IMG/VR virus record: IMGVR_UViG_3300014202_000564
Source: a virus
DNA length: 64,000 nucleotides
Reading direction: 5' to 3' (one strand)
Shown: one piece after another, positions 2,551 to 56,992 of the stretch
Layout of the letters: every line of letters begins with the position of its first letter
How positions within the stretch are numbered: the stretch's first letter is position 1
Position numbers and translations under genes: made by a program
Notes under the pieces: model-generated
Told to the model about the DNA's origin: nothing
Database searches by the model: none
What the model saw: the letters and a program-made list of their open reading frames with translations, nothing else

Positions 2551-2891
2551 GTGATGTGAAATTGGTTCTCTTCAATAATGGTCTACAGCTTGTTGGTGAA
2601 TTCACTGAGGTTGATGCTACCATCGGTAAAGTGACAATCAAGAAACCGGTTCAGTTGGTTATTGGTCCTCGCACAGAAGCAGAAGCAGCACAGGGTAAGG
2701 TGGGTATGGCATTCACCCCATTCATGCAGTATACAGTTGAGTGGGAAAGTGGAGTTGTGTTTTCTGCAAACGATATTCTTTCTGTCTTGACCCCGATGGC
2801 AGATCTAGTTAATAACTATAGCACCAATTTTGGTAGTGGATTGGTTCTTCCTGGTGGTGCGTCAGGGTTGGTGTTGCCGAGCGGTCGTTAA
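2547..2891 (+). CDS. hypothetical protein
   Basis: 114-aa track ORF; ATGA start/stop overlap with the upstream gene. Confidence 0.6.
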   Translation: MSDVKLVLFNNGLQLVGEFTEVDATIGKVTIKKPVQLVIGPRTEAEAAQGKVGMAFTPFMQYTVEWESGVVFSANDILSVLTPMADLVNNYSTNFGSGLVLPGGASGLVLPSGR

Positions 2892-2916
2892 TTCCATTTG
2901 TGAAAGCATTTCATTT

Positions 2917-5651: not shown

Positions 5652-5661
5652 GAGATTGATT

Positions 5662-6687
5662 ATGTCATTGATGGATCGTATGAAAAAACAGACAACAATT
5701 GATATTGCTAATGCACTAGATGATTCTGACATTTTTAGTGATCGTCAGGTTATCCCCACAGAAATTCCAATTTTAAACATTGCTCTACAGGGTAGTTTGC
5801 AAGGTGGACTCACTTCTGGTGTCACACAGATTGCAGGACCATCGAAGCATTTTAAGTCGTTAATTGCATTGTTCATGATGCGGTCATTCCAGAAGAAATA
5901 TCCTGATGGTGCGGTGTTGTTCTATGACTCTGAATTTGGTACCCCAAAGGGATACTTCAAATCTTTTGGAATTGATATGAGCAGGGTTTTGCATTGTCCA
6001 ATTGTCGATGTTGAGCAATTCAAGCATGACATCATGGTTCAGTTGAAGGAATTTAAGCGCGGTGAGAAAGTCCTTATTGTTATCGATTCATTGGGTCAAT
6101 TAGCATCTTCGAAGGAAGTTGATGATACGCTAGAGGGTAAAGCAGTTGCGGACATGACCCGCGCTAAATCAATCAAGTCCTTGTTCAGAATGATTACCCC
6201 ACACCTAAGAATCAAGGATATCCCTATGGTGGTCATTAACCACACCTATAAAGAGCTTGGGATGTATCCAAAGGATATTGTTGGTGGTGGCACTGGTAGT
6301 TATTTTGCAGCAGATACCATTTGGATTGTTGGAAGGCAGCAGAATAAGGTTGATGGTGAAGTTGCAGGTTATAATTTCGTGTTGAATGTTGAGAAATCTA
6401 GGTATGTCAAAGAGAAGTCTAAATTTGGACTAACTGTTACGTTTGAAAATGGTATCGAAATTTACTCTGGTCTTCTTGAGTTGGCTCTTGAGGGTGGGTT
6501 CGTCACAAAACCATCACCAGGTTGGTATGTGAAAAAAGGAACCGCTAACAAGGTTCGTGAGTCGGAGACAAAAACAGAGGCATTTTGGAAGGATCTTCTT
6601 AAAGATGGAGAATTTAATGAATTTATTAAGAAGCATTGTGAAGTGGCTTATGGGGATCTTGTCGATTCAAAAGAAAGCGACGAGTAA
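5662..6687 (+). CDS. uvsX: UvsX-like RecA-family recombinase
   Basis: collinear with T4 UvsX: Walker A GPSKHFKS, DSLGQLASSKE, MTRAKSIKSLFR, VINHTY, NVEKSRYVKEKSKF; ATG 5662 lies 7 nt after GGAG. Confidence 0.92.
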   Translation: MSLMDRMKKQTTIDIANALDDSDIFSDRQVIPTEIPILNIALQGSLQGGLTSGVTQIAGPSKHFKSLIALFMMRSFQKKYPDGAVLFYDSEFGTPKGYFKSFGIDMSRVLHCPIVDVEQFKHDIMVQLKEFKRGEKVLIVIDSLGQLASSKEVDDTLEGKAVADMTRAKSIKSLFRMITPHLRIKDIPMVVINHTYKELGMYPKDIVGGGTGSYFAADTIWIVGRQQNKVDGEVAGYNFVLNVEKSRYVKEKSKFGLTVTFENGIEIYSGLLELALEGGFVTKPSPGWYVKKGTANKVRESETKTEAFWKDLLKDGEFNEFIKKHCEVAYGDLVDSKESDE

Positions 6688-7024
6688 CCCACTCCCACAA
6701 GAAGAGGTTGATTACACTTTTACTGAATTGGTTATTGGTGAAGATGTACTGAGTGCCATAAAGATCATTGACGGTTCATATAGCGGTGTGGTATATTATT
6801 ATGGGCGAGTGAAGGTCATTCCACCAGAAATTCCTGAAACACCAGCAATCCTGTCATTTGATTACAGGGTTCATTCTCTACCAGATGGTATGGACCATCG
6901 TGCGGTGAAGGGGGATGATTTCAAACAACGTGCTGGTGATATATTGACTGCTATTCTTTTAGATAATGGGAAGGGAGAGTATGCTACGATTAGAGAGCAC
7001 GATTCTAAAGAACCTCATCTATAA
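6650..7024 (+). CDS. hypothetical protein (start uncertain)
   Basis: track ORF 6557-7024 overlaps the uvsX 3' end; ATG 6650 is the last in-frame ATG before the uvsX stop; no motif recognised. Confidence 0.4.
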   Translation: MGILSIQKKATSNPLPQEEVDYTFTELVIGEDVLSAIKIIDGSYSGVVYYYGRVKVIPPEIPETPAILSFDYRVHSLPDGMDHRAVKGDDFKQRAGDILTAILLDNGKGEYATIREHDSKEPHL

Positions 7025-8393
7025 TGAATCATATATGAGAAAGGTTATTCCCTTTCTCAAAGCAGAATACTTTAAAGAACAAACAGAACGGTTGCTGTTT
7101 ACACATATCTCTCGCTTTATCGAGAAGTTTAAATCTCTCCCCACATTTGAAGCATTAATTATTGAAATCACAGAGTCCACCAATACCAAAGAAGAGCAGA
7201 TTAAGGATGCGGTTGATCTACTAAAAGATATCAACCTGGATAAAGCTGAACCGACAGATATTCCTTGGCTTTTGGGACAAACGGAAAAGTTTTGTAAAGA
7301 TTCTGCATTGTATAATGCGGTCCTTGAAGCAGTGTCCATCATGGATGAGTCGGACAAGAAGAACAAGAAACCAAGGGAAGTCATTCCCTTCATTCTTCAG
7401 CAAGCACTCTCCGTTTCTTTTGATCCTCATGTGGGTCATGATTATATGCTGCAATCTGATGATCGGTTTGCTGCATACCATAAGAAAGAAAAAAAGATTC
7501 CATTTGATCTTGAATTTTTCAACAAGATAACTAAGGGTGGGTTTTCGGTTAAGACCCTTAATGTGTTCCTCGCCGGAACTGGTGTTGGAAAAACCTTGCT
7601 CATGTGTCATTTAGCTGGTGCTGCTCTTTCTGCAGGGTACAATGTTGTGTATATCACACTTGAAATGGCAGAAGAGAAGATAGCTGAGAGAATTGACGCC
7701 AACTTGCTAAATGTTAAATTGGATGATTTGGAGAAAATTTCAAAACAAGACTATGACCGTAGGTTTTCTATATTTAAAAATAAAACACAGGGTAAGTTGA
7801 TTGTTAAGGAATTCCCCACTGCATCAGCATCTTGTCACCACTTTAGGGGGTTGTTGAGTGAGCTTGCACTTAAGAAGTCGTTCAAACCAGATTTGATTTT
7901 TGTTGATTATATCAATATATGTGCATCAGCTAGAATTAAAATGGGCGGTGGTGCCAACAGTTATGAATATGTTAAGGCAATAGCAGAAGAATTGCGGGGT
8001 CTCGCAGTCGAGTACTGCGTACCTTTGGTTACCGCTACGCAGACAACAAGAAGTGGATTTGAAAGTACAGATCTTGAGTTGACTGATACTTCAGAGTCGT
8101 TTGGTTTACCTGCTACAGCAGACTTCTTTGCCGCCATCATAAGTACTGAAGATCTAGAAAAGATGGGTCAATACATGATCAAGCAGTTGAAGAACAGGTA
8201 TAACGACAAGGCGAACAATAAGAGGTTTGTTATTGGGGTGGATAAACCAAAGATGAGATTGCATGACGTTTCACAAACAGCACAACAAGGATTACAAGAT
8301 GCTGGGCAAACCACACCCAATGTAGCACAAGAAAGAAAACCATTTGAGAGAAAACCGATCAATAAAGACGATCTATCTAAATTTAAGTTCTAG
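6981..8393 (+). CDS. gp41: replicative DNA helicase (T4 gp41 / DnaB-like)
   Basis: collinear with T4 gp41: ALSVSFDPHVGHDY, Walker A GTGVGKT, LEMAEEKIAERIDAN, AIAEELRGLAVE, GLPATADF; ATG 6981 follows GGGAGAG. Confidence 0.93.
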   Translation: MLRLESTILKNLIYNESYMRKVIPFLKAEYFKEQTERLLFTHISRFIEKFKSLPTFEALIIEITESTNTKEEQIKDAVDLLKDINLDKAEPTDIPWLLGQTEKFCKDSALYNAVLEAVSIMDESDKKNKKPREVIPFILQQALSVSFDPHVGHDYMLQSDDRFAAYHKKEKKIPFDLEFFNKITKGGFSVKTLNVFLAGTGVGKTLLMCHLAGAALSAGYNVVYITLEMAEEKIAERIDANLLNVKLDDLEKISKQDYDRRFSIFKNKTQGKLIVKEFPTASASCHHFRGLLSELALKKSFKPDLIFVDYINICASARIKMGGGANSYEYVKAIAEELRGLAVEYCVPLVTATQTTRSGFESTDLELTDTSESFGLPATADFFAAIISTEDLEKMGQYMIKQLKNRYNDKANNKRFVIGVDKPKMRLHDVSQTAQQGLQDAGQTTPNVAQERKPFERKPINKDDLSKFKF

Positions 8394-8972
8394 GTGAAGA
8401 TGATGAAAAGCTACATTACAGTATTAGATGGTGCGCTTACCCATAGTTTTTGTGTTGGTATGATTGAGAAGTTTGAGAAGAATGAAGAGCATGAGCAGGA
8501 AGACACCGATTGGGGAAACCGACACTTCAAAGAAATCAATATCACTTCCCATACGAATTGGGAAAAAGAAAATGACACAATGGTTAGGTCTGTGAATCAG
8601 TTATGGCGCGCTTATGCGCAGGAACATAAAATACTTCTTGATTCGCAGTGGCCCAAGACATTTGGATTTGAACAGTTCAGGATGAAGAGATATTTACCAA
8701 ACAATAAAGATGAATTTTCATTTCATACTGATGTTGGGAGCTATGCCTCATCGAGAAGATTTTTGTCGTTTTTGTGGTATTTGAATACGGTGGATCGCGG
8801 TGGTATGACTAATTTTGGTTATGAGCCAGCTTGTCCGCAGCCGTTTGCGTCGGTCCCTGCAGTAGAGGGAAGGGTCCTCATGTTCCCCCCTCTATGGACC
8901 TATCCCCATTGGGGAGAAAAACCAATTAGTGGTCCTAAGTATATTGTTTCTGGTTACTTACATTACCTCTAA
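8394..8972 (+). CDS. 2OG-Fe(II) oxygenase (prolyl-4-hydroxylase-like)
   Basis: HxD...H pattern: FSFHTDVG ... YPHWGEKP; GTG 8394 or ATG 8400/8403 are possible starts. Confidence 0.65.
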   Translation: MKMMKSYITVLDGALTHSFCVGMIEKFEKNEEHEQEDTDWGNRHFKEINITSHTNWEKENDTMVRSVNQLWRAYAQEHKILLDSQWPKTFGFEQFRMKRYLPNNKDEFSFHTDVGSYASSRRFLSFLWYLNTVDRGGMTNFGYEPACPQPFASVPAVEGRVLMFPPLWTYPHWGEKPISGPKYIVSGYLHYL

Positions 8973-8992: not shown

Positions 8993-9910
8993 ATGCCAAA
9001 TCTTACAGATTTATCTGATGTCAATGAACTTTTCATACTATTTCTCCTTTCCAGTGAAACTTGGTCTTCCCAGGAAGTCAAGGATATCTTTGATAAGAAA
9101 TATCAATCCATAGGGGAAGAAGAAGCTTCATTGCAATTAGAGAGAGCGCGGTTCATGGTCCAAGCATTCCTTTCCTGGGCAGAACAAGCTGGATATCTGA
9201 CACCTATAAAAAATGTCTGGTGGACTGGTAGACCCGGAACACTTCAAAGTATTTTCCAGATCAATATCGATCAGAGAAAGAACCCAACAGATATATTGGT
9301 TCAGTTTACTGACGGACCATCGGATGGGTATTTGGGGATGTCTGCAAAATCAACTCGCGGTCGTTCTGATATCAGTTTCAAAAACCTAGGAGTTGGTTCA
9401 GTCGAGACTGACTTACAAATAGATATCAGTTCAGCGACAAACCAAATGACTGATGATGTGATAAAACAGTTGGGGCTTCCGGTGCAGATGGAAGAGAGGA
9501 AGACCTTTATACGCAGCAATCCTGAAATTAGGTCGTTGACGAGACAAGCAGGTACCCAAATACTAGAAAAGGTTCGGGATATTCTATTTGATAAGCTAAA
9601 AGAGTTTGACGATGAGTATCTAAAGTGTTATATTCTTGATACCTGGTTAAATGCATCAGTCGATAAATATCCACCATACATTAAGGTTACTGGGATAGGT
9701 AAGAAATTAGGGTCCATTCGAGCAAGGGTTGAACATCCCCTGGATAATGATAAAGTTCGCTCGTTGTCTCAGGGGTTGATATATATTGAAAAGTATGGTT
9801 GGGCGAGTGTTGGGGTCAGTGGTTCGGATAAGAGAGTGATGAAGATTCGAGCAAAGTATAGTTCTGAAAAGTTAGCATCATCTTTAAAACTTATGGGTGA
9901 TCCGTGGTAA
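8993..9910 (+). CDS. hypothetical protein
   Basis: 305-aa track ORF; no motif recognised. Confidence 0.65.
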   Translation: MPNLTDLSDVNELFILFLLSSETWSSQEVKDIFDKKYQSIGEEEASLQLERARFMVQAFLSWAEQAGYLTPIKNVWWTGRPGTLQSIFQINIDQRKNPTDILVQFTDGPSDGYLGMSAKSTRGRSDISFKNLGVGSVETDLQIDISSATNQMTDDVIKQLGLPVQMEERKTFIRSNPEIRSLTRQAGTQILEKVRDILFDKLKEFDDEYLKCYILDTWLNASVDKYPPYIKVTGIGKKLGSIRARVEHPLDNDKVRSLSQGLIYIEKYGWASVGVSGSDKRVMKIRAKYSSEKLASSLKLMGDPW

Positions 9911-11136
9911 CAGATTTTAAGACATATCTAACAGAAGACAATGAGCCGAAAAACATACATCTTGAACATATTGAAGATCTGATGTTCAATGATGGGATTG
10001 ATGGTGTTGTAGGTGCTTTAAACTTCCTCACATCGCTTCGTGATATGCTTTCTGGTCATTCAAGGTTCAGTAAGATGAATGTCACCACCAAATGGGATGG
10101 TGCACCTTCTGTGGTTGCTGGGATTAACCCAGACAATGGTAAGTTTTTTGTTGGTACCAAGAGCGTCTTTTCCAAGAACCCAAAAATTAATTACACTGAG
10201 CAGGATATCATCACCAACCATGAATCCCCAGAACTCCAAGATAAATTAAAAATCTGTTTACGCTATCTTCCTAAGCTTGGCATCAAAGGTATTTTGCAGG
10301 GTGATATTTTGTTTACCGAGGATGAGCCAACGGTACAGGAAATTTCTGGTACCGATTATATAACTTTTACCCCCAATACCATCACCTATGCTATTCCAGT
10401 TCTTACAAAATTAGCGGATAGAATTGGTAAAGCAAAGCTTGGTATTGTTTTTCATACCGAGTACAGCGGAAAGACAATGGAGTCATTAAAAACCTCATTT
10501 AACGTTGATCTTGGTTATCTTCATAACACAAAGGATGTGTGGTTCAGGGATGCTAGTTTTATTGACGAGTCTGGCACAGCAACATTCACGGAGGTTGAGA
10601 CTGACTTGATGGATGCCAAGTTGGTAGAAGTCAACCGTAAATTTAAAAGCATTAACACTAGGGTCTTACAACAGATTTCCATGAACACTGTGTATCGAGA
10701 TCTTGTTAAGATGTACAACAATTCTGTTATACGAGAGGGTCAGTCGATAAAAGATACCATCGTCCATACTAATGGTCTGATCCGTTGGATAGACAAGAGA
10801 TTGTCGGCAAAGGTCCTTGAAGCTAAGAAGGTGGAGACACAAACGAAGCGGTTCAAAGAAAAGTCGAACATACTTGGTTTCTTTCAAGTTCATAGCAATG
10901 ATATTAGGATTCTTTTTGACTTGCAAAATGCTATTGTTTCTGCTAAACTATTGATCCTGGATAAATTATCAAAAGCGGAGAGTACGAAGAGTTTTATACG
11001 GGTGGAGTCTGGGTACAAAGTGACAAGACCCGAAGGATTTGTTGCAGTGGATATCCTTGGCAATGCGGTAAAGCTTGTTGATCGTCTTGAGTTCAGTCAT
11101 GAGAACTTTAAAGTGTCCAGGAGTTGGAAAAAATAA
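9904..11136 (+). CDS. putative covalent-nucleotidyltransferase (ligase-like) protein
   Basis: 410 aa; motif I-like TKWDGAPS, motif IV-like RPEGFVAVD, motif V-like AVKLVDR; GTG start overlaps the upstream stop. Confidence 0.45.
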   Translation: MVTDFKTYLTEDNEPKNIHLEHIEDLMFNDGIDGVVGALNFLTSLRDMLSGHSRFSKMNVTTKWDGAPSVVAGINPDNGKFFVGTKSVFSKNPKINYTEQDIITNHESPELQDKLKICLRYLPKLGIKGILQGDILFTEDEPTVQEISGTDYITFTPNTITYAIPVLTKLADRIGKAKLGIVFHTEYSGKTMESLKTSFNVDLGYLHNTKDVWFRDASFIDESGTATFTEVETDLMDAKLVEVNRKFKSINTRVLQQISMNTVYRDLVKMYNNSVIREGQSIKDTIVHTNGLIRWIDKRLSAKVLEAKKVETQTKRFKEKSNILGFFQVHSNDIRILFDLQNAIVSAKLLILDKLSKAESTKSFIRVESGYKVTRPEGFVAVDILGNAVKLVDRLEFSHENFKVSRSWKK

Positions 11137-11152
11137 TTGAACTGGAGATATA

Positions 11153-12046
11153 ATGGAACAACGGGATTTGGTGATTGGGTCTGTCACTGGATATAAATTT
11201 GAACAAATCTCTCCTTGGGTCAACTCGCTCGATGCATCCGGGTTCAAGGGAATGAAAGCTCTTGTGGTATACAATATGGATGCTGAGGGGGTCAAAGAAC
11301 TTTCAGATCGCGGGTACATCATTCTTGGATTTGAGAAGGACTCTGTAACAAATTCACTCCATTACCCCAAACCAAAATTCTCCATCGTCGTTGAGCGTTT
11401 CCTTCATTATTACCTCTTTCTCTATAGCAAAGAAAATCGCTACAATATAAGATACATCCTTTCCACTGATGTGAAGGATGTAATATTCCAAAAGAATCCA
11501 AGTCTCTTTTTTGATTCATGTGATTTGTTGGGGTCTGAGAAAGCTTGCTCCATCATTGCGTCTTCTGAAGAGTTGGAATACCAACATGAAGATTGGGGTA
11601 AGAATAATATGATTGAGTCGTATGGAACAATTTTCTATGAACGACACAAAACAAATACAATATACAATGCTGGAGTGATTGCCGGTAAGTTCCATACGTT
11701 TCTTGGTTTGTGCAAAACAATTTACCTCACTTCTGCAGGTGCCCCCCAATTTGTTCCTGGTGGCGGTGGTCCAGATCAAGCAGCCTATAATCTATTACTC
11801 GATACCGCTGCATACAAAAACATAACGCTACATACAGATCATGACACTGCTTGGGCGGCTCAATTGGGCACCACTGCAGACCCTTCTAAAATTAATAAGT
11901 ATCGTAGCTTTTTAAAAACCACTGGTCCATGTCTAGACACTGATAAGGGTCTTGTTGTTACACCAGTTGGTGAACCGTATGCTATCGTTCATCAATGGGA
12001 CCGAGTTCCTGAAGTTCGTAAATTTGTTGAGAGGAGATATGTATAA
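11153..12046 (+). CDS. hypothetical protein, possible GT-A-fold glycosyltransferase
   Basis: 297 aa; LSTDVKDVIF is a DxD-like segment; first gene of the sugar island. Confidence 0.4.
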   Translation: MEQRDLVIGSVTGYKFEQISPWVNSLDASGFKGMKALVVYNMDAEGVKELSDRGYIILGFEKDSVTNSLHYPKPKFSIVVERFLHYYLFLYSKENRYNIRYILSTDVKDVIFQKNPSLFFDSCDLLGSEKACSIIASSEELEYQHEDWGKNNMIESYGTIFYERHKTNTIYNAGVIAGKFHTFLGLCKTIYLTSAGAPQFVPGGGGPDQAAYNLLLDTAAYKNITLHTDHDTAWAAQLGTTADPSKINKYRSFLKTTGPCLDTDKGLVVTPVGEPYAIVHQWDRVPEVRKFVERRYV

Positions 12047-13071
12047 TGGCTTTTGAAGAACCCACTAAACCAGCACAACCAACACAAGCAGGTGTTCCGG
12101 TGAAGTTTGTTAAGCGTAAGTTGTTGTTTGTCGTTCATAGGTATGCTCCATTTCCAGGTGGGTCGGAAAATTACGTGAAAGATATGGCAGAAACGGCATA
12201 TTTCAGGGGTCATGATGTTGTAGTGCTTGCGGGTGAGCACAAGGGAAATCATAATGGTGTTCCTGTTACCTCTGATACTTCCATCCTCATGAACAGTTGG
12301 GATTTAATCGTTGTTCATGGTGGTGATGTGTCTATGCAAAATTATGTGTTGTCTAATGCGGATAAGTTTGGGGGTCCTGTTCTTTATCTTCTTATTCTTC
12401 CATCAAATTCCCCCACTTGCATTTCTGCATTGTATAAAGCTTCCTACCTGGGGTGCTCCACCTTAGCGGATTATCGTCATGTTAAGGGGTATAATGTCCA
12501 ACATAAGGCAGTTCGCGTTCGTCATGGAATCAATTGTAATCAGTCCATAGGTCCTCTTGGTTTTAGAGAAAAATATGGCATTACCACCAAGTATATGTTC
12601 CTCTCTTCTGGTGGGTTTTGGCCAAACAAGGGGTTTGATGAGTTGGTCGAAACATTTAACTCTATTGATCGAGATGATGTAACCCTTGTATTGACAGGGT
12701 ATGACAACCGAAATAACATCATGCCTCAGACCACAAAAAGGGTGAAGAGTCTCTTGCTCCACACCAGATCTATGATGCTCTCCGCATTGCGAGAAGCTGA
12801 TTTGTATGTATTGAATTCAACGTCTGAGGGGTTTGGGTTGGTGTTGTTAGAGGCGATGTTGAATGGCACTCCCTGGGTCGCAAGAAACATTGCTGGAGCT
12901 GAAACGCTACGTGAATATGGGGTCACCTATACAACCCAAGAAGAGTTGGTAAAATACATGACGGGGTTCATTGGCGTTCCCCATGAAGATCTAGTGACAG
13001 CACAGAATTATATTATTTCTTCACATCAGATATCACACACAGTTGCCGACATCTTGAGGATTATTCAGTAA
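12046..13071 (+). CDS. GT-B glycosyltransferase (GT1/GT4-like)
   Basis: C-terminal signature STSEGFGLVLLEAMLNGTPWVARN; N-terminal FPGGSENYV. Confidence 0.75.
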   Translation: MAFEEPTKPAQPTQAGVPVKFVKRKLLFVVHRYAPFPGGSENYVKDMAETAYFRGHDVVVLAGEHKGNHNGVPVTSDTSILMNSWDLIVVHGGDVSMQNYVLSNADKFGGPVLYLLILPSNSPTCISALYKASYLGCSTLADYRHVKGYNVQHKAVRVRHGINCNQSIGPLGFREKYGITTKYMFLSSGGFWPNKGFDELVETFNSIDRDDVTLVLTGYDNRNNIMPQTTKRVKSLLLHTRSMMLSALREADLYVLNSTSEGFGLVLLEAMLNGTPWVARNIAGAETLREYGVTYTTQEELVKYMTGFIGVPHEDLVTAQNYIISSHQISHTVADILRIIQ

Positions 13072-13748
13072 TGAAGATGACGTTTGGAATATGTACCAGT
13101 GGCAATGTGAGGCATAAGTCTCGCCCACCACACAATGATCTAAGTAGTTACTATACTACTATTGAGAGTATAAAGAGTCTTAACATCCCTGATGTTGAAA
13201 TTCTTACTGCAGACTGTTCGAGTGGTGTGTGGCTCACAGACAAGAAAAATGCCATCGCAAGGCAAGCTTCCCATGATGTCATTGTTCTCCTGCATGATTA
13301 TTTTACCTTTGATAAGCGATGGTATCAAGCTTACAAAGAATTTGGTGATAAGTGGGATGTGTGTTCAAACCCTCAGTTCCTTATGGATGGGAACCGACAT
13401 TTCACAGATTGGGTCATGTGGTACAATGAAAAGCCACCCGTTCAATATACTTCCATAGAGTACACCAATTGGAGTTACACCAAAAAACAATATATTAGTG
13501 GTGGGTTTTTCTTGGTCAAGAAGCAGTTTCTTCTTGATAATCCCCTGAACGAAGAATTGCCAGTTGGTTCTACAGAAGATGTGGAATGGTCCTTGCGAAT
13601 ACGCGATAAGGCAATGATTGCATGCAACCCCGCGGCACTTGTCATACATAATAAACAGCACAGAGACATGGGTAGAGTTGGGTTTCCATTTCAACAAACA
13701 ACCCATTTTCATATTGACTGGTATAAGAGGATGTTGAATTATGATTAA
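13071..13748 (+). CDS. hypothetical protein, possible glycosyltransferase
   Basis: 225 aa; start overlaps the upstream stop; weak GT-A-like VLLHDYF segment only. Confidence 0.35.
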   Translation: MKMTFGICTSGNVRHKSRPPHNDLSSYYTTIESIKSLNIPDVEILTADCSSGVWLTDKKNAIARQASHDVIVLLHDYFTFDKRWYQAYKEFGDKWDVCSNPQFLMDGNRHFTDWVMWYNEKPPVQYTSIEYTNWSYTKKQYISGGFFLVKKQFLLDNPLNEELPVGSTEDVEWSLRIRDKAMIACNPAALVIHNKQHRDMGRVGFPFQQTTHFHIDWYKRMLNYD

Positions 13749-15114
13749 TCGTCTAGTAATTTTTGATCTTGATGGGGTGTTAGTTGATTCTCGGAAGATC
13801 CATTTTGAGGCATTGAATCGCGCCCTATTAGACTGTAACCCAAAGTTTGTGATTTCCTGGGATGAACACCTTTCAAAGTATGATGGACTACCCACCACCA
13901 AGAAGTTACAGATGCTTACCAAGGAAAAAGGATTACCTACCGGTCTGTATGATTCCATTTGGAGAAGAAAACAAGACTATACCGTTGAGTTGTATGGTAA
14001 TATCGATGTAGATGAGAGCACACAATATTTGTGTGAAAAACTCAGAATGAATGCAATTAAGATTGCGGTTGCCTCAAATAGCATACGTGCTACTATGAAG
14101 ATTGCCCTTTTAAGAAAGGGAATTATGGAATATGTTGACTATATGGTTTCAAATGAAGATGTGAAAAGAGCTAAACCCTTTCCTGATATGTATTGGAAGG
14201 TTATGACTGCCCTCAATTCCATTCCAGAGAAAACCGTTATCATAGAGGATTCACATATTGGAAGACAAGCAGCTCTTGCGTCCAAAGCACACCTTCTCCC
14301 CATAGGTGGACCCGAAGATTTGACGGAAGCTGTTATTGATAATGCCATACATTATTTGGATGGTGGGAAGTTGGTTACCGTACCTTGGAGGAACAATAAG
14401 ATGAATGTGGTTATTCCTATGGCTGGGCATGGTTCGAGGTTCGCACAAGCGGGATATTCATTCCCCAAGCCTCTCATCGAAGTGAACGGTAAACCTATGA
14501 TTCAGGTAGTGGTAGAGAACCTGAATATTGAAGCTCACTATGTTTTCTTGGTACAAAGGGAACACTATGAGAAGTATCAGCTAAAATATATGTTGAATAT
14601 GATTGCTCCTGGATGCGACATCGTTCAAGTTGATGGTGTTACTGAAGGGGCTGCCTGCACAACTCTCCTTGCAGAAAAATTTATCAACAATGATGATCCG
14701 CTGTTGATTGCGAATTCTGACCAGTATGTAGAATGGGATTCGAATGAATGCTTGTACGCATTTACTGCAGATGGTATTGATGCGGGCATTTTGACATTTC
14801 ACTCCCTTCATCCCAAATGGTCCTATGCGAAGATTAATGAGAGGGGGTTTGTTGAAGAGGTAGCAGAAAAGAAACCGATTTCAGACCATGCTACAGTGGG
14901 TATTTACTATTGGAAGAAGGGCTCCGATTATGTCAAGTACGCAAAGCAGATGATCGAGAAGAATATTAGGACGAATAATGAATTTTATGTCTGCCCAGTG
15001 TTCAATGAAGCAATCGGGGATGGTAAAGTGGTTCGTGTCAAGGACATTCAGAAGATGTGGGGGATTGGTACACCAGAAGATTTAAAAACCTTTTTGGAGT
15101 CTCATAAGCAATGA
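13741..15114 (+). CDS. HAD phosphatase / sugar-phosphate nucleotidyltransferase fusion protein
   Basis: N-terminal HAD motif I FDLDGVLVDS, then ASNS and EDSHIG; C-terminal half has VVIPMAGHGSRF...FPKPLIEVNGKPMI (GxGxR nucleotidyltransferase loop). Confidence 0.75.
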   Translation: MINRLVIFDLDGVLVDSRKIHFEALNRALLDCNPKFVISWDEHLSKYDGLPTTKKLQMLTKEKGLPTGLYDSIWRRKQDYTVELYGNIDVDESTQYLCEKLRMNAIKIAVASNSIRATMKIALLRKGIMEYVDYMVSNEDVKRAKPFPDMYWKVMTALNSIPEKTVIIEDSHIGRQAALASKAHLLPIGGPEDLTEAVIDNAIHYLDGGKLVTVPWRNNKMNVVIPMAGHGSRFAQAGYSFPKPLIEVNGKPMIQVVVENLNIEAHYVFLVQREHYEKYQLKYMLNMIAPGCDIVQVDGVTEGAACTTLLAEKFINNDDPLLIANSDQYVEWDSNECLYAFTADGIDAGILTFHSLHPKWSYAKINERGFVEEVAEKKPISDHATVGIYYWKKGSDYVKYAKQMIEKNIRTNNEFYVCPVFNEAIGDGKVVRVKDIQKMWGIGTPEDLKTFLESHKQ

Positions 15115-15641
15115 GAACCATCATTGAAATTGGTGCGCATGCTGGTGTAGAAACTAAACACTTTTTGGCAAGTCCAGATGTAAAGGTGTATGCGTTCGAA
15201 CCGAATATCCGCAGATTTAAGGACCTATTCAAGTTATCCCAGGAAAATCCTCGTCTATATCCCCTTCCATTCGCTATTAACTGGGGGGACAATCAGGAAC
15301 CGTTATTCCATGATGAGAACGATGCACAGGATTCTCTTAACCCCTCTGGAGGAACATTCGGCAAACAGTTCACCATGTCTTGGACTATGCGATTGGATAC
15401 GTTTATTGAAATGTATGGCATATCCAGTATAGACTATTTGAGGATTGATGCTCCATTTTCAGAGGAAGCTTGTCTCGATAGTTTGGGGGATCATTATAGA
15501 ATAGTAAAAGAGGGTAGGGTTAGGGTGTATGACAAGCATTCTCAAGATGTATTGCAGTGGTTAATTGATCATGACTTCACCTTTCACACAGACATCATTT
15601 ATGTTGGTGTCGGTGTGGTTGATATTACTTTTCGGAGGTAG
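15111..15641 (+). CDS. FkbM-like methyltransferase
   Basis: IIEIGAHAGVET at the N-terminus resembles the FkbM-family SAM motif; ATGA overlap with the upstream gene. Confidence 0.5.
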   Translation: MRTIIEIGAHAGVETKHFLASPDVKVYAFEPNIRRFKDLFKLSQENPRLYPLPFAINWGDNQEPLFHDENDAQDSLNPSGGTFGKQFTMSWTMRLDTFIEMYGISSIDYLRIDAPFSEEACLDSLGDHYRIVKEGRVRVYDKHSQDVLQWLIDHDFTFHTDIIYVGVGVVDITFRR

Positions 15642-15644
15642 ATT

Positions 15645-16439
15645 ATGCAGACATGGATTTTGACATTCAACAGACCCACAGCACTGAATAGACAAATTGA
15701 TACATTTAAATCATGGACTGATGTTCATGTTTTTACCAACCATTCTGAAGTTGGGTTATCTGAAGAGAACTATAAGTTGGCAGGCGAACAGAAGATTAAA
15801 ATTATGAACAATACCCTGTCCGATAATGAATCAAATTCTTGGTGTGCTCGCAGTTGGAATAGCATTTTTATAAAGGCATTCAAGACAGAAGAAGAGATTA
15901 TTTGTGTACAGGATGATACACACATTATCGATCCGGTTGGATTCCAAAATTTAATTCTTGCGAACAAAGACCGATATGATTTGATATGGGGTCCTGCAGG
16001 AGATCAATTCTTTTATGTGAAGAAGAGACTTCTTGCTCAAGTGGGATATTTCGATGAGAGGTATCTTGGTTGTTACTGTGGGGATGCTGATTGGTTGAAG
16101 AGGATTTGGCAACAGTGGGATGCGAACCGGTTGTCTATCTCAGAAAGTCATGACTGGGGATTTCGTCATAATTCAATTGGGGTGGAACGATACATACCAA
16201 CACATATTCAATCGAAGGCTTGCGATAAGACCTATATAAATCAGCATGAGGAAATTGTTGCGAAGATGGGTGGGAGAAATAGCATACTTGAGCACTCGCA
16301 AGCCCACTACTGTGCAAAATGGGGTCATATGTTAAATGGCAGCGGTCCCATTTCTAGGGTTGATCTTGCATTTGGATCTATGATAACTGAAATAGATTGG
16401 TATCCTTGGTTCACAAAGAAATATTTAAAAGGGGTGTAG
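15645..16439 (+). CDS. glycosyltransferase family 2-like protein
   Basis: ILTFNRPTALNRQIDT and CVQDDTHI resemble the GT2 N-terminal and DxD segments. Confidence 0.45.
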   Translation: MQTWILTFNRPTALNRQIDTFKSWTDVHVFTNHSEVGLSEENYKLAGEQKIKIMNNTLSDNESNSWCARSWNSIFIKAFKTEEEIICVQDDTHIIDPVGFQNLILANKDRYDLIWGPAGDQFFYVKKRLLAQVGYFDERYLGCYCGDADWLKRIWQQWDANRLSISESHDWGFRHNSIGVERYIPTHIQSKACDKTYINQHEEIVAKMGGRNSILEHSQAHYCAKWGHMLNGSGPISRVDLAFGSMITEIDWYPWFTKKYLKGV

Positions 16440-16441
16440 TC

Positions 16442-16606
16442 ATGCCACATAGGATTTATGTTGATGTGAAGAATGAAGTTGATGCGTCCATCATTCAGCA
16501 GGTCATTCATGAATCTCTATGGAGACAGCGGGCAATGCGGCAAGGGAAAGAAGACCTAACTGTTCATCTAATCGATTTACCGGAGGATAATCATGAGTGT
16601 AAGTGA
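16442..16606 (+). CDS. hypothetical small protein
   Basis: 54 aa from ATG 16442 (track 16397 overlaps the upstream gene). Confidence 0.4.
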   Translation: MPHRIYVDVKNEVDASIIQQVIHESLWRQRAMRQGKEDLTVHLIDLPEDNHECK

Positions 16607-17330
16607 TAATGATTTTTTAAAGAGACAATCCAATTTCTGGAATGACATTGCGAAGACATGGAGTCTACAAAACAAGAATCCTATTGTCGGTTGGTATCAT
16701 GAGCACATGGCATTCCCGGAGTATGATAGTGTATTGTTCCGAGATCTTCCATTGACGGGTAATGAAGTTGTCTTGGAATATGGTTGCGGACCTGCAAGAA
16801 ACATTATCAAGTGGCATAAGAAATTTCAACGCATTGATGGTGTTGATATTGCTCCTGAGTGTATTGAAAAAGCGAAGTTGCATCTTGCAGCAGAGAGACT
16901 ACCTGAGCCTAATCTATGGGTTAATGATGGTCGGTCGTTGGATATGATTCCTTCAGCGGGTACCAATCCATATGATTCTAGCCAGTTCCCCGGTTACGAT
17001 TTGGTGTTCATGGTTATCAGTCACCAACATATCACTTCTCGTTCAGTCAGGTTGAATTTGTATAGTGAGTTTTTGCGCGTGTTGAAGCCTGGTGGATATC
17101 TCTGTTTCCAAACTGGGTTTGGTCCTGGGCATCCCCGTTCGGTGGACTATTTTACAGATTCCTTTAACACCGAATCAGAATTTGTGGACAAGGACGTTCG
17201 GGTTGAAGATGTTGAGCATCTTCGCAAGGATCTTGTTGATGTGGGGTTTGAGTGGGTGGGTCACAAACTTACTCGTACCTGCAAAGACGAGCATCCATTG
17301 TGGATTTGGGTCCAGTGTCGTAAACCATAA
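16593..17330 (+). CDS. class I SAM-dependent methyltransferase
   Basis: motif I VLEYGCGPARN, then GVDI, LKPGGYLCFQTGFGPGHP. Confidence 0.75.
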   Translation: MSVSDNDFLKRQSNFWNDIAKTWSLQNKNPIVGWYHEHMAFPEYDSVLFRDLPLTGNEVVLEYGCGPARNIIKWHKKFQRIDGVDIAPECIEKAKLHLAAERLPEPNLWVNDGRSLDMIPSAGTNPYDSSQFPGYDLVFMVISHQHITSRSVRLNLYSEFLRVLKPGGYLCFQTGFGPGHPRSVDYFTDSFNTESEFVDKDVRVEDVEHLRKDLVDVGFEWVGHKLTRTCKDEHPLWIWVQCRKP

Positions 17331-17361
17331 TATCATAATTTTAAATTAGAAAGAGAATATC

Positions 17362-18048
17362 ATGGCAGATGAAATGTTGCGTCAGTTTTGGGGTGAAGAA
17401 GCTTCTCGTTGGTCATTGCAAAATAAAAATCCATTAGTTGGATGGTACAATGAACATATGGCTGATGAGAAAGAGGGGAAGCTTTTGTTCCGAGGGGTTC
17501 AAACTCACATTGGGTCTCATGCTTTGGAATATGGGTGCGGTCCAGGTAGAAACATCATCAAGTTTAAAGATTGGTTTGGTCGCATTGATGGTGTAGATAT
17601 TTCAAGCGAAATTCTTGCTAAACTTCCAGCGAATCTAGCAGAATCACAGGTTCAAGTGCCCAATCTTTATCATACGAATGGTCATTCTCTGAGTATGATT
17701 AATTCTTCAATCTACAATGTGGTCTTCTCCATCATTTGTATGCAACATATTGGTTGCAGGGATTGGAGATTGGAACTCTATCGAGAGATCCATAGAGTTT
17801 TGGTGCCTGGTGGTTATTTCTGTTTTCAGATGGGGTTTGGTCCTGGACACCCCATATCGGTTGATTACTTTCACAATTATGATGAAACCGATACATCCCA
17901 TAGGGATACGAGGGTTGAGGATGTGGAAGTTCTTAAGAAAGATCTTGAAGATCAGGGGTTTGTGGGGTTTGATTATGTTTTGACGGAACCCTGTCATGAC
18001 GTTCATCCCCAATGGATTTGGGTTCGAGTACAGAAACCCACAGAATAG
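17362..18048 (+). CDS. class I SAM-dependent methyltransferase (tandem paralog)
   Basis: ALEYGCGPGRN, GVDIS, LVPGGYFCFQMGFGPGHP; collinear with the 16593-17330 product (WSLQNKNP.VGWY.EHMA). Confidence 0.75.
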   Translation: MADEMLRQFWGEEASRWSLQNKNPLVGWYNEHMADEKEGKLLFRGVQTHIGSHALEYGCGPGRNIIKFKDWFGRIDGVDISSEILAKLPANLAESQVQVPNLYHTNGHSLSMINSSIYNVVFSIICMQHIGCRDWRLELYREIHRVLVPGGYFCFQMGFGPGHPISVDYFHNYDETDTSHRDTRVEDVEVLKKDLEDQGFVGFDYVLTEPCHDVHPQWIWVRVQKPTE

Positions 18049-18144
18049 CTCCATAATGCAACAAAACGGGCGTTTGAGAGGGTTATAATAAAAACCTGAG
18101 TCCACCCACACACCAAACGCCCACAATTTCGTAAGTGGTTGATT

Positions 18145-18606
18145 ATGTTATATATTGCACACCGTGGTAATATTTCAGGTCCGTCGATAGAACTAGAGAA
18201 CTCCCCCAAACACATACAGGTTGCACTGGGATATGGGTTTCATGTTGAAATCGATCTTTGGGGTAAAGATGGAACCTTGTGGTTAGGTCATGATAAACCG
18301 GTCCATAAAATAGACCCACCCTACATAATCGAACACCAAGATAAATTCGTATGCCATTGTAAAAATGTAGAAGCTATTGACATACTTAATGAATTTGTTC
18401 CTGGTGCACATTATTTCTTCCATGATTCTGATGACTACACCTTAACGAGCAGGGGGTATCTTTGGTGCTACCCGGAGCGAACCCCAGCAAGAAAAAACTC
18501 CATTGTTGTTATGCCAGAAAGATTCACTGATGGTGTTTCTTATTATCTTGCAAAACATAATGTGTTTGGTGTATGCTCTGACTACGTAAACGATCTAATC
18601 TTATAA
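18145..18606 (+). CDS. GDPD-fold phosphodiesterase-like protein
   Basis: IAHRGN..ENS..HVEIDLW..DGTLWLGHD follows the HRG / E / ExD / HD catalytic pattern of glycerophosphodiester phosphodiesterases; short; track start is TTG 18139. Confidence 0.5.
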   Translation: MLYIAHRGNISGPSIELENSPKHIQVALGYGFHVEIDLWGKDGTLWLGHDKPVHKIDPPYIIEHQDKFVCHCKNVEAIDILNEFVPGAHYFFHDSDDYTLTSRGYLWCYPERTPARKNSIVVMPERFTDGVSYYLAKHNVFGVCSDYVNDLIL

Positions 18607-18641: not shown

Positions 18642-20753
18642 ATGAAGCCGCTATACATTCCTAAGCATGGTCTCAATATACAACGTTCCCAACTTCCACA
18701 GATCAAGTCTACAGATGTGTCCGCTTTCATTCAGTGGCTCAAGACCAAAAAGAATATAAAAGTCACACATACCGAGTTCCCCGTTGCTTCTCTCTATCCT
18801 TCTCAGGGTGAGTTTAATGAAGTAAAAATCAGACAGTTGATGAAGGATAAGCGGGAGCACTTAAAAAAACCTATTATCATGTCTGGAGATCATTACCTCT
18901 TAGATGGGCATCATCGTTGGATTGCTCTGCTCAATATTGACAATAAAGAGACGATTCCTGCTATTGTGGTCCATGCAAAAATTCTGGATCTTCTCTCCGC
19001 TGCAAAAGAATTCCCCAAGTCGTTCACTAAAACTGTGGTTGAATCATTTACCTCTCATATTCAGGAACCACATTTAGTCATGACGTTTGGTCGTATGAAT
19101 CCTCCAACACTTGGTCATGAGAAATTGATTCAGAAGGTTCATGAGATTGCACATAAACACAATGCAGATCATAAAGTTATCCTATCCCATACCCAAGATA
19201 GAAACAAGAATCCTTTAGATCAAGAGTCTAAGATCCGGCACACCAGTGCGATGTTTCCGGGTACCAAGATAATGGGGTCAACAAAGGAACATCCATCGTT
19301 ACTTCACCATGCAACTTTAGCACATAAGTCTGGGGTTAAGCATTTACATGTTGTCATGGGGGATGACCGAGTTGATGAGTTTAATACTTTGTTAAATAAG
19401 TATAATGGTCATATTGATGATGCGGGCAATGGATTCCACTTCAAATCCATCACCGTCCATTCAGCAGGACATAGAGATGCGGATGGAGAGGGGATTGAGG
19501 GGGTTTCCTCTAGTAAAATGAGAGAGCATGCAAAGAATAATAACTTTCAGGAATTTAAGAAAGGTATTCCAAGCACCATGTCACTAGATAACGCAGAGCA
19601 ATTATTCTACGATGTTAGGAAGTCGATGGGTATGTTAGAAGAAGAGAGACAATTGCTATCCGAAGGTGTACATGATGCATCTATTTTTAAAGCTGTATTT
19701 TTAGCTGGTGGTCCTGGATCGGGAAAAGATTTTGTTCTTAAGAAAGCACTTGATGGGCATGGACTGGTAGAAATTAATTCAGATAAGGCTCTTGAGTATC
19801 TGATGGACAAACATAAGCTTGACATGAAGATGCCAGAGCATGAGACGAAGAGACGAGACGAAGTAAGAGCTAAGGCTAAGTCCGTCACTGAACTCAGACA
19901 TCGTTTCGCTCTTGAGGGTCGCAATGGGATTATTATCAACTCCACAGGTGCAGATGCAAAGAAAATAGGAAAGATTAAGAGTGTTCTTGATGAGTTGGGA
20001 TACGATTCTAAGATGTTGTTTGTTGATACAAGTGATGATGTGTCTCGTCAGAGGAATGTTGAAAGAGGACAACGCGGCGGACGTTTAGTTCCTGAAAAGC
20101 TTCGTTCCTCCAAGTGGAAGGAGGCACAGGATGCCCGCGTAGAATTCTCAAAGATCTTTGGAACTGAGCACTATCATGAGTTCAAAAATGATGAGGATTT
20201 GCGCACTAATTTAGATCCAGAGGTACATAAGGCAAAGAGTAAAGAGCTACTAGATCTATTCAAAACAGTTAAGAAGTTCAGCCAGTCGGAACCAAAACAT
20301 CCGAAAGCACAAGAATGGATTCAGAGCAATTTGGGCAAGCTTGCTAAAAAACCAATTGGCAATAAGAAGCAGCAAAGTTCGGTAACCCCACCAAATGACC
20401 AATCTGAAGCAGCAAAGCAAGCACAGCAGATGGGACTGCAGTATTATGGGTTTGGTCGCTATGGTAAGGGTGGTCGAATCACTCACTTCTCATTACATGA
20501 TAAGCTGGTTGAGAAGAAGAAGGTTATGGAGAAACCAAAAGAAGTTGCTAAGCAGCCAGTTAAAGAATCCCTTGATGATGCATTCGCTAATTTACTTACT
20601 GAGGGTGAACCTGTTCTTGATTTGGGTGGTGAGGGTGGACCCATACTTGGTATGGATAAGGGCGAAAAGGAAGTTATTTCTCCTTTAAGTGGAGGCAAAG
20701 CAACAACAGGACCCAAGAAAACATTCAGAGATTTGCGAACGGAGAAGAAGTAA
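18642..20753 (+). CDS. ParB-like nuclease domain / HIGH-motif nucleotidyltransferase / P-loop kinase fusion protein
   Basis: aa 80-100 GDHYLLDGHHRWIAL (ParB/Srx fold); aa 148-160 TFGRMNPPTLGHE plus SSSKMRE (cytidylyl/adenylyltransferase HxGH and ISSTxxR); aa 353-363 FLAGGPGSGKD (Walker A); Lys/Glu-rich tail. Confidence 0.65.
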   Translation: MKPLYIPKHGLNIQRSQLPQIKSTDVSAFIQWLKTKKNIKVTHTEFPVASLYPSQGEFNEVKIRQLMKDKREHLKKPIIMSGDHYLLDGHHRWIALLNIDNKETIPAIVVHAKILDLLSAAKEFPKSFTKTVVESFTSHIQEPHLVMTFGRMNPPTLGHEKLIQKVHEIAHKHNADHKVILSHTQDRNKNPLDQESKIRHTSAMFPGTKIMGSTKEHPSLLHHATLAHKSGVKHLHVVMGDDRVDEFNTLLNKYNGHIDDAGNGFHFKSITVHSAGHRDADGEGIEGVSSSKMREHAKNNNFQEFKKGIPSTMSLDNAEQLFYDVRKSMGMLEEERQLLSEGVHDASIFKAVFLAGGPGSGKDFVLKKALDGHGLVEINSDKALEYLMDKHKLDMKMPEHETKRRDEVRAKAKSVTELRHRFALEGRNGIIINSTGADAKKIGKIKSVLDELGYDSKMLFVDTSDDVSRQRNVERGQRGGRLVPEKLRSSKWKEAQDARVEFSKIFGTEHYHEFKNDEDLRTNLDPEVHKAKSKELLDLFKTVKKFSQSEPKHPKAQEWIQSNLGKLAKKPIGNKKQQSSVTPPNDQSEAAKQAQQMGLQYYGFGRYGKGGRITHFSLHDKLVEKKKVMEKPKEVAKQPVKESLDDAFANLLTEGEPVLDLGGEGGPILGMDKGEKEVISPLSGGKATTGPKKTFRDLRTEKK

Positions 20754-46118: not shown

Positions 46119-46283
46119 ATGAGGAAAGAAAAGAAGTGTCCAGGTCTGCATGCCAGGGATTGTGATAATCCCCGTTCGAAGACGCTACACACTTGTCCAT
46201 ACAAAGAAGATCTGTATGCCGATCTGGGCACAATGTGTGCATGTTGTGATGACTGTAGGAAACGATGTCAAGATGAGACCTAA
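46119..46283 (+). CDS. small Cys-rich protein
   Basis: 54 aa with 8 Cys (CACCDDCRKRC); its 3' end overlaps ATG 46273. Confidence 0.4.
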   Translation: MRKEKKCPGLHARDCDNPRSKTLHTCPYKEDLYADLGTMCACCDDCRKRCQDET

Positions 46284-56730: not shown

Positions 56731-56969
56731 GTAAAAAAGGATTCGTGAAGCACACCATTGAAATTGATATTCCAGCGGGGAGAGATCCGCTGTCATACTT
56801 GAAAGATGCTCTAGAGGATGCGATTCAACATAACTATGAAATGGTGATGTTGGATCTGACGAAAAGACCACACATTAACGAGAACCTGATGAGGGTGGCT
56901 GCAGAGATATATCGAAAGAACATTGAGGAATATAAGCAAACCAAAGGAACGTTGAGCGTGATTGTGTAG
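56727..56969 (+). CDS. hypothetical protein
   Basis: 80-aa track ORF; ATGA overlap. Confidence 0.55.
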   Translation: MSKKGFVKHTIEIDIPAGRDPLSYLKDALEDAIQHNYEMVMLDLTKRPHINENLMRVAAEIYRKNIEEYKQTKGTLSVIV

Positions 56970-56992
56970 TAATAACAATAAGTTACGATTAC

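Follow-up and report, generated by a model that had tools for sequence, protein, structure and literature searches.

The genes between positions 11153 and 18606 of a 64,000-nucleotide stretch of viral DNA from IMG/VR record IMGVR_UViG_3300014202_000564 (the window, 64 kb of a ~169-kb genome) probably form a cytoplasmic glycan-assembly operon of a T4-like myovirus, and not a DNA-modification system. In the pathway that I propose for the nine annotated genes, here called g1 to g9, the HAD-IA domain of the fusion protein g4 would dephosphorylate a host sugar phosphate at a non-anomeric position, and its nucleotidyltransferase domain would join the resulting sugar-1-phosphate with a nucleoside triphosphate to give a nucleoside diphosphate (NDP)-sugar. 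A short oligosaccharide would be built by four soluble glycosyltransferases (GTs), namely g2 (family GT4, GT-B fold, probably retaining), g3 (GT-A fold) and g1 and g6 (probable GT-A), and its sugars would be O-methylated by three S-adenosylmethionine (SAM)-dependent methyltransferases, the FkbM-family g5 and the paralogues g7 and g8, on an acceptor made in the infected cell. The last gene product, g9, would act on a phosphodiester tied to donor supply, for example by releasing glycerol phosphate or sugar phosphate or by trimming a phosphodiester-linked substituent. The gene order, the domain and fold identities, the predicted solubility, the conservation in the lineage and the linkage of the nucleotidyltransferase with g9 are results of the analysis; of the pathway I infer the substrates, the order of steps, the O-methylation of sugars by g5, g7 and g8, and the acceptor. 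The original prediction for this DNA had read the block as the synthesis of an NDP-sugar followed by several sugar transfers and O-methylation, which the profile and fold assignments given below uphold, and its further point, that sequence alone leaves the target undecided, also holds. Sugar-gene clusters in aquatic T4-like phages are already known; what is particular here is a set of glycosyltransferases unrepresented among them, the many methyltransferases, the site in the replication module and the core-like conservation.

Enzymes encoded by the block

The nine plus-strand open reading frames (ORFs) of the block are co-oriented and abutting or overlapping in the ORF listing, all at the coordinates first assigned to them, but the original count of nine genes has to be raised to ten, since a 54-aa ORF on the same strand and inside the same operon had been overlooked (Table 1). 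The intergenic gaps along the block are -1, -1, -8, -4, 3, 2, -14, 31, 96 and 35 nt, a GGAG-like ribosome-binding site lies ahead of most starts, and the co-oriented, overlapping arrangement therefore indicates that the ten genes are one operon. Six relatives from metagenomic freshwater or groundwater assemblies (L006/L007, L008, L010, L013, L014 and L015) were available for comparison, and at the same g6-g7 position tblastn finds the small ORF at 80% identity in L006 to L008, 69% in L013, 67% in L010 and 38% in L014. None of the nine annotated proteins contains a hydrophobic 19-residue window of Kyte-Doolittle value 1.6 or more and, with no transmembrane-grade segment, the pathway would therefore be soluble and self-contained. 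This also separates the block from the GtrABC/Oac seroconversion systems of temperate phages, which are defined by a membrane flippase, a bactoprenol glycosyltransferase or an acyltransferase.

Profile searches did not reject the glycosyltransferase and nucleotidyltransferase assignments, and g2, g4, g7 and g8 pass curated Pfam thresholds. The predicted fusion of a HAD phosphatase with a sugar-1-phosphate nucleotidyltransferase is borne out in g4 by matches to HAD_2 (7e-27) and NTP_transferase (2.9e-11; residues 224-448, 43.9 bits against a cutoff of 21.2), and both motifs on which it had been based, FDLDGVLVDS and IPMAGHGSRF..PKPLI, are present, AGHGSRF being the N-terminal GxG(T/S)R loop. 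The nucleotidyltransferase domain matches PDB entry 4evw (4e-14), and none of the NCBIfam equivalogs for RmlA, GlmU, MurU and AglF reaches its cutoff for this domain. The HAD domain, with a score of 43.8, exceeds the HAD-SF-IA-v3 (TIGR01509) cutoff of 29.4. In an alignment to the Lactococcus lactis beta-phosphoglucomutase (beta-PGM), the HAD motifs FDLDGV, S112, K154 and E178-D179 are kept, corresponding to D8/D10, S114, K145 and E169-D170 of beta-PGM, and four other beta-PGM residues, K45, R49, K117 and N118, which I take to bind the distal (second) phosphate, are replaced by S, G, I and R. Because the beta-PGM equivalog score is far under its cutoff (TIGR01990, 74.1 against 189.4) and these residues are lost, beta-phosphoglucomutase was rejected as the function of the domain, which looks like a sugar-phosphate phosphatase instead. 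Close homologues of g4 number at least 8000, all at E <= 1e-10.

The second gene that I assign to donor supply, g9, has no match in Pfam or NCBIfam, and its 153 residues fall short of the full (beta/alpha)8 barrel of ~220-250 residues. Nevertheless, its first description as a phosphodiesterase-like protein of the GDPD fold proved sound: across 48 homologues H6, R7, N19, E35, D37 and H49 are invariant and E18 is near-invariant (at least 90%), these residues are those of the GDPD catalytic pattern H-R...E-N...E-x-D...H and align with the GDPD N-terminal motif, and the catalytic motif is thus intact. Similarly, the AlphaFold model (predicted local distance difference test, pLDDT, 94.7) has the GDPD structures 1v8e (4.7e-5) and 1vd6 as its best Foldseek matches, with template-modelling (TM) scores against GDPDs of 0.58 when query-normalised and 0.44 when target-normalised, and the family profile matches GDPD at 1e-3. 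Judged by this model, g9 is a cut-down variant of the GDPD barrel and not a canonical GDPD.

These two genes travel together. Among cultured phages, g9 occurs in 17 records, and a g4-type nucleotidyltransferase is found in all 17 (0-6 kb apart where inspected); full-length g4 is found in 12 Synechococcus phage records at 61-65% identity (B3, S-CAM9, S-PRM1 and DSL-LC03 among them), which makes it better conserved toward cultured phages than the helicase gp41, and the mini-GDPD is 36-39% identical to its cultured-phage homologues. The pair lies within GT/epimerase clusters of the Synechococcus phages B3, S-CAM9, S-PRM1, S-8S56 and DSL-LC03, a nucleotidyltransferase-only variant accompanies g9 in S-SM2 and SynMITS9220M01, and in L011 the pair stands in a giant island of GT10, GT11, GT25, epimerase and aminotransferase genes. 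Since the genes around it are wholly different elsewhere (GT11, GT6, GT25, GT10, GT61, epimerases, aminotransferase), g4 and g9 would be a portable donor-supply module to which each lineage adds its own glycosyltransferases and methyltransferases. A separate observation concerns SynMITS9220M01, where a gene annotated as a 'phosphatase' (L017 4781-5938) encodes a fusion of an NTP_transferase domain with an RpiB/LacAB sugar-phosphate isomerase (4e-33) and adjoins genes for a GHMP kinase, phosphatases and a DUF7796 protein annotated 'capsular polysaccharide biosynthesis protein'; by its predicted domains, this arrangement is the classical order of isomerase, anomeric kinase, phosphatase and nucleotidyltransferase.

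Among the four putative glycosyltransferases, g2 had been described as a GT-B enzyme of family GT4 with the motif STSEGFGLVLLEAMLNGTPW, which is indeed present in the translation, and the assignment is confirmed by Glycos_transf_1 (60.3 bits, cutoff 26.4; E = 2.1e-16), Glyco_trans_1_4 (1.1e-15) and phrog_2170 (3.6e-16). Its EX7E donor-binding motif reads SEGFGLVLLEA, the N-terminal Glyco_transf_4 model reaches 16 bits (cutoff 28.5) over residues 37-70 alone, and the best matches among PDB sequences are BshA and WaaG. The gene g3, at first only a possible glycosyltransferase, has no library match; its AlphaFold model (pLDDT 91.1) matches B4GALNT1, Listeria monocytogenes RmlT, Mimivirus R699 and ppGalNAc-T in Foldseek at probability 1.0 and E values of about 1e-7 (9e-8 to 1e-6 over many GT-A enzymes), and its family profile matches RmlT (8e-4), so that, going by the predicted structure, g3 is a GT-A fold enzyme. 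At the place of the DxD motif, H75, D76 and Y77 are invariant in the family. The GT-A-like and GT2-like labels first given to g1 and g6 are retained with evidence weaker than for the others, and PHROG matches, motifs and fusions make both probable glycosyltransferases. Without a match in Pfam or NCBIfam, g1 matches phrog_1579 'glycosyltransferase' at 6.6e-5, as do 14 of 40 members of its family (best 9e-9). This family, for which Pfam has no model, counts 970 cluster representatives; it keeps D106, D109, D208, Q209 and H280 invariant and includes fusions to GT2 or SAM methyltransferase domains, and its profile finds no match among PDB sequences. With no Pfam match either, g6 matches phrog_29879 'galactosyl transferase' at 5.7e-5 (six of six lineage members match) and phrog_2456 at 5.6e-4 (five of six, best 5e-6), and its motifs QDDT (Q89-D90-D91-T92) and GDADWLKR are invariant. 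Comparison of the g1 and g6 families with the g3 family by hhalign gave no signal, a result that is neutral toward a GT-A fold of g1 and g6, and single-sequence PDB matches of g1, g3, g6 and g9 (neuraminidase, haemoglobin, CAT) were disregarded as being at chance level. No homologue of g1, g2 or g6 was found among cultured phages, the nearest being a 26% match of g1 in Rctr41k, an uncultured virus from an enrichment culture.

The methyltransferases include, as foreseen, two class I SAM paralogues. For g7, Methyltransf_25 gives 2.4e-11 (44.6 bits, cutoff 27) and Methyltransf_11 gives 2.3e-9; for g8, Methyltransf_25 gives 2.4e-13 (51 bits, cutoff 27); the two share 50% identity (E = 2e-76) and the glycine-rich SAM motif LEYGCGPxRN. 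Their distribution differs, g7 being 73-83% identical in six of six relatives and a true orthologue of g8 occurring only in L010 (65%). The FkbM-like label of g5 holds narrowly in Pfam (Methyltransf_21, 24.7 bits against 22.7) but not by the NCBIfam cutoff, which it just misses (TIGR01444, 34.8 against 37.7). Its copy number also varies, since L010 has no orthologue, L013 has only a 28% FkbM paralogue, and an additional FkbM gene is present in L006/L007 and in L014. In L015, g6 and a g7-type methyltransferase are one ORF of 518 aa (12539-14095), and the 54-aa ORF and the mini-GDPD g9 are absent there. Taken together with the GT2 and methyltransferase fusions in the g1 family, this natural fusion ties the methyltransferases functionally to the glycosyltransferases.

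Lineage conservation and genomic setting

The block lies between the helicase gp41 and the primase gp61, as had been noted, and the description of it as an inserted island is only partly apt, since it is not a recent insertion. In all relatives in which both flanks are available (all but the truncated L008), it occupies the same site between the DUF6267 gene and the gene of a ~700-aa kinase protein, with the core order g1-g2-g3-g4-(methyltransferases)-g6-(small ORF)-g7-g9. Identity to the relatives is 44-85% for the block proteins (54-73% for g1 in the six) and 52-77% for the flanking genes, and the G+C content of the block, 0.40-0.435, is close to the 0.38-0.42 of its flanks. Recent horizontal insertion was thus rejected on flank-like G+C content and lineage-wide synteny and, since synteny goes together with flank-like identity, the block has been inherited with the backbone and, judged by sequence comparison, is a stable lineage module. 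The relatives differ in how many methyltransferases they have, through an additional FkbM or class I enzyme, and in the presence of an SNase gene. An older entry is possible because a single profile, phrog_455 (764 positions), is matched by DUF6267 at positions 19-342 and by the N-terminal part of the downstream 703-aa protein at positions 386-643; in the distant past the block may have come to separate the halves of a conserved unit, and DUF6267 and the 703-aa protein, which flank it in every relative, may form an RNA-repair-like unit that it splits. At the exact DUF6267/g1 junction, homing-endonuclease-like genes (HNH_3; faint NUMOD3) were seen in L013 (6909-7442) and L014 (6724-7293), and are absent from the window.

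The T4-like backbone is represented in the window by gp43, UvsX, gp41 and gp61, and gp41 is 55-59% identical to its counterparts in Synechococcus, Prochlorococcus and Pelagibacter myophages. At the DNA level, megablast against 50,697 phage records gave no match to the block in cultured phages. No exact copy of the g4 or g9 protein was found on record. Scans for promoters, terminators and the T4 late promoter (TATAAATA) gave counts at or below chance, the window gave no match to queries for psbA, psbD, hli, talC and plastocyanin, and a search for tRNA genes was likewise negative.

Table 1. Genes of the block and other features of the window
Feature	Coordinates	Strand	Length	Remarks
gp43 polymerase	2830-5463			
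UvsX	5656-6687			
gp41 helicase	6966-8393			
2-oxoglutarate (2OG)-Fe(II) oxygenase	8394-8972	+		P4H-type; phrog_61, 2e-34
305-aa protein	between the 2OG-Fe(II) oxygenase and DUF6267		305 aa	
DUF6267	9904-11136	+		KWDG ligase-like motif
g1, probable GT-A-type (GT8/GT77-like) glycosyltransferase	11153-12046	+	297 aa	
g2, GT4 (GT-B fold) glycosyltransferase	12046-13071	+	341 aa	
g3, predicted GT-A fold glycosyltransferase	13071-13748	+	225 aa	H-D-Y at the expected DxD
g4, HAD-IA phosphatase and sugar-1-phosphate nucleotidyltransferase fusion	13741-15114	+	457 aa	domains at ~1-205 and ~220-452
g5, FkbM-family SAM methyltransferase (marginal)	15111-15641	+	176 aa	
g6, probable GT2-like (GT-A) glycosyltransferase	15645-16439	+	264 aa	
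Small conserved ORF	16442-16606	+	54 aa	ribosome-binding site AAAGGGG; 14-nt overlap with g7
g7, class I SAM methyltransferase	16593-17330	+	245 aa	lineage core
g8, class I SAM methyltransferase	17362-18048	+	228 aa	
g9, miniature GDPD-fold phosphodiesterase-like protein	18145-18606 (alternative start 18139)	+	153 aa (155)	
703-aa protein	18642-20753	+	703 aa	HxGH cytidylyltransferase domain and zeta/AAA_33/polynucleotide-kinase-like P-loop
NT5C	between the 703-aa protein and gp61			
gp61 primase	26409-27449			
ThyX (Thy1)	27460-28149			
Ribonucleotide reductase (RNR)	after gp61			MazG also nearby
Autoinducer-synthase-like protein	46150-46797	+	215 aa	directly upstream of the BcsA-like gene
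BcsA-like processive GT2 synthase	47527-49485	+	652 aa	

Known clusters and candidate acceptors

Gene clusters for 'LPS / cell-wall synthesis and modification' have been described in aquatic T4-like cyano- and pelagimyophages, and the suggested role is a change of the host O-antigen or DNA protection (PMC12801897, PMC7029224). The block resembles the clusters of the cyanomyophages P-SSM2, S-SCSM1, S-SCSM2R, S-CAM9 and B3 and those of pelagimyophages in that glycosyltransferases stand with nucleotide-sugar enzymes in an aquatic T4-like myovirus, and it is homologous with the cyanophage clusters in the HAD-nucleotidyltransferase fusion (61-65%) and the mini-GDPD (36-39%) only. Unlike these clusters, it is rich in methyltransferases (three to five per relative), has no epimerase or dehydratase, and lies in the replication module, whereas they lie in nrd-psbA or tail-fibre hypervariable regions; also, it is syntenic and conserved like its flanks, in contrast to their hypervariable, non-syntenic location. 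As in the donor pathways for GDP-heptose and UDP-arabinofuranose, a HAD phosphatase is paired with a nucleotidyltransferase of the NTP_transferase family; however, the block has no isomerase or kinase, and its HAD domain belongs to the capped, beta-PGM-like type IA and not to the GmhB type.

With regard to the acceptor, my tentative first choice is a precursor of a host envelope glycan on the cytoplasmic side, a placement for which I would claim rather less than even probability and which I rank slightly above the virion. A host envelope glycan is how the literature reads such clusters (PMC7029224, PMC12801897), and the choice fits both the family matches of lipopolysaccharide (LPS) and exopolysaccharide (EPS) type and the BcsA-like synthase encoded in another part of the window, a gene by which the phage would invest in host polysaccharides. 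Since the block brings no priming or export genes, decoration of the host surface would need host machinery. In the second reading, the soluble glycosyltransferases and methyltransferases would put a methylated oligosaccharide on capsid or tail proteins and so alter the particle surface, in the manner of chloroviruses, mimiviruses and some mycobacteriophages. Such virion glycosylation, a sub-case of cytoplasmic glycan assembly, seems to me possible but doubtful, even though the pathway is wholly soluble and self-contained, its conservation at the rate of core genes fits a conserved phage-encoded acceptor, and the fold neighbours of g3 include protein O-GalNAc transferases and Mimivirus R699. 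The chlorovirus PBCV-1 offers a parallel in its capsid-glycan genes (A064R, A061L, A075L, A111/114R), which supply an NDP-sugar enzyme, several GT-A and GT-B enzymes and SAM methyltransferases. The block shares with PBCV-1, and with the Megavirinae fibril clusters (PMC10117803), soluble GT-A and GT-B enzymes, SAM methyltransferases and nucleotide-sugar enzymes, the products there being methylated oligosaccharides; however, those are eukaryotic giant viruses whose protein acceptor is proven, that of the block being a candidate, and no orthology with the block was detected. Virion glycosylation by phage glycosyltransferases is documented in mycobacteriophages by Freeman et al. (2023), in the form in which that work is cited in PMC12801897. 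There the genes lie beside structural genes, whereas here the operon lies in the replication module, the GT-A fold matches are generic, and there is no sequence pointer to a protein acceptor. Furthermore, I know of no glycosylated virion protein in a T4-like phage.

The setting that speaks against the virion is also what recommends the DNA itself, in which a hydroxylated base would be glycosylated as a shield against restriction, as with the glucosyl-hydroxymethylcytosine of T4 or the arabinosyl-5-hydroxycytosine (Ara-5hoC) of RB69 and DLP3, but with a longer, methylated chain; I regard this as improbable. The operon lies between gp41 and gp61 amid genes of replication and nucleotide metabolism (NT5C, ThyX, RNR, MazG), and a 2OG-Fe(II) oxygenase is encoded three genes upstream of the block. 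The Ara-5hoC clusters of RB69, DLP3 and HY126 are likewise T4-like and near replication genes, and they likewise combine a HAD phosphatase, a sugar-1-phosphate nucleotidyltransferase fusion and GT4-like GT-B enzymes that match BshA best structurally (PMC13326640), BshA being also among the best PDB sequence matches of g2. However, these clusters own a thymidylate-synthase homologue producing 5-hydroxy-dCMP (5hodCMP), a nucleotide kinase, a dCTPase, an arabinose-5-phosphate isomerase and an anomeric kinase domain, none of which is in or next to the block, they have no methyltransferases, and their similarity to the block is at most at the level of superfamilies. In T4, RB69 and DLP3 the genes for the hydroxylase or hydroxymethylase and for the deoxynucleoside monophosphate (dNMP) kinase adjoin the glycosyltransferases, yet in this window, which does hold a nucleotide-metabolism module, neither a ThyA-like hydroxylase/hydroxymethylase nor a dNMP kinase was found among the plus-strand ORFs of at least 225 aa other than 53788-54471 and 56962-57669 (227 and 235 aa), only ThyX being present. 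It is this missing thymidylate-synthase-like base hydroxylase that makes DNA glycosylation less likely. The oxygenase is of the P4H and not the TET/JBP type and adjoins gp41 in cyanophages too, P-RSM1 and S-SSM4 for example, and g2 has no detectable similarity to any glycosyltransferase of cultured phages, RB69 and DLP3 included. It does pass the Pfam GT4-conflict threshold (29.9 against 26), a match that was considered and rejected as evidence for a DNA target, given that it covers just 62 residues of generic donor-binding motif. Four glycosyltransferases with three or more methyltransferases also exceed any known DNA modification and, to my knowledge, O-methylated DNA sugars have no precedent. 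Slightly less probable still is the specific case of a methylated oligosaccharide on phage DNA whose base would be hydroxylated by the 2OG-Fe(II) oxygenase or by a hydroxylase encoded outside the window, with the chain extended and capped by the four glycosyltransferases and three methyltransferases. The same enzymes might instead make a soluble product, a glycoside or oligosaccharide carrying methyl groups; glyceryl glycosides and the polymethylated polysaccharides of mycobacteria, methylglucose lipopolysaccharide (MGLP) and methylmannose polysaccharide (MMP), are examples of the kind. In that scheme, glycerol phosphate from g9 would be coupled to the NDP-sugar by a glycosyltransferase, and the product would be completed by removal of phosphate through the HAD domain and by methylation through the methyltransferases. 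Family GT4 does include sucrose-phosphate synthase and the MMP mannosyltransferase, mycobacteria make cytoplasmic methylated glycans with GT4 enzymes and SAM methyltransferases, and such a product would give the nucleotidyltransferase, HAD and GDPD functions each a role and make lipid carrier or export genes unnecessary. Yet this has no phage precedent, the gain for a lytic phage is unclear, and the company of g4 and g9 with diverse glycosyltransferase sets (GT10/GT11 fucosyltransferase-like, GT25) is better fitted by a general supply of donor than by the priming of a fixed acceptor, all of which leaves the soluble product very unlikely.

Cytoplasmic glycan assembly, the reading that I prefer, has several observations to contend with. 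The block is conserved like core genes and lacks the hypervariability that an arms race over receptors would predict, and it sits in a module of replication and nucleotide metabolism, as the DNA glycosyltransferases of the T-even phages do. No anomeric sugar kinase or isomerase is encoded in the block, which leaves the substrate of the HAD domain unexplained, nor is a priming phosphoglycosyltransferase, flippase, polymerase or ligase, and genome-wide, such absences extend only as far as the window. Also, the calls of g1 and g6 as glycosyltransferases depend on weak PHROG matches together with motifs, and no cluster of this class has an experimentally assigned target or function. All of these weigh against the proposal.

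Other genes of the window and wider meaning

Two further genes of the window, both on the plus strand, are recorded here in their own right. The BcsA-like synthase matches Glyco_trans_2_3 (1e-26) and Cellulose_synt (2e-11), carries a C-terminal PilZ c-di-GMP-binding domain (1.5e-7), six hydrophobic segments and the TED and Q-R-K-R-W motifs, and lies within a stretch of higher G+C content (0.45-0.485) from 39 to 51 kb. The protein encoded directly upstream of it matches autoinducer synthases (LuxI-type, 3e-10) and N-acyl amino acid synthases of the GNAT type, and may serve the phage as a synthase of signal molecules or acyl-amides. Between 35700 and 39000 (~3.3 kb), no plus-strand ORF of 100 aa or more is present, and numerous small genes or non-coding features may lie there.

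Clusters of sugar genes in aquatic T4-like phages were already noticed in the earliest cyanophage genomes and are abundant in metagenomes, and the HAD-nucleotidyltransferase fusion has thousands of close homologues. Among them, this lineage is a clean case, with a compact, self-contained, soluble and core-like operon and natural fusions of glycosyltransferases with methyltransferases. Furthermore, the phage-specific pairing of the HAD-nucleotidyltransferase with the mini-GDPD points to an uncharacterised supply route for nucleotide-sugars or phospho-sugars. If a methylated oligosaccharide on DNA, improbable as I consider it, were true, it would surpass every known DNA hypermodification in complexity and give the cyano-/pelagimyophage-like group its first. 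Whether the envelope, the virion or the DNA is the target, each would bear differently on phage host range, superinfection and the evasion of defences.

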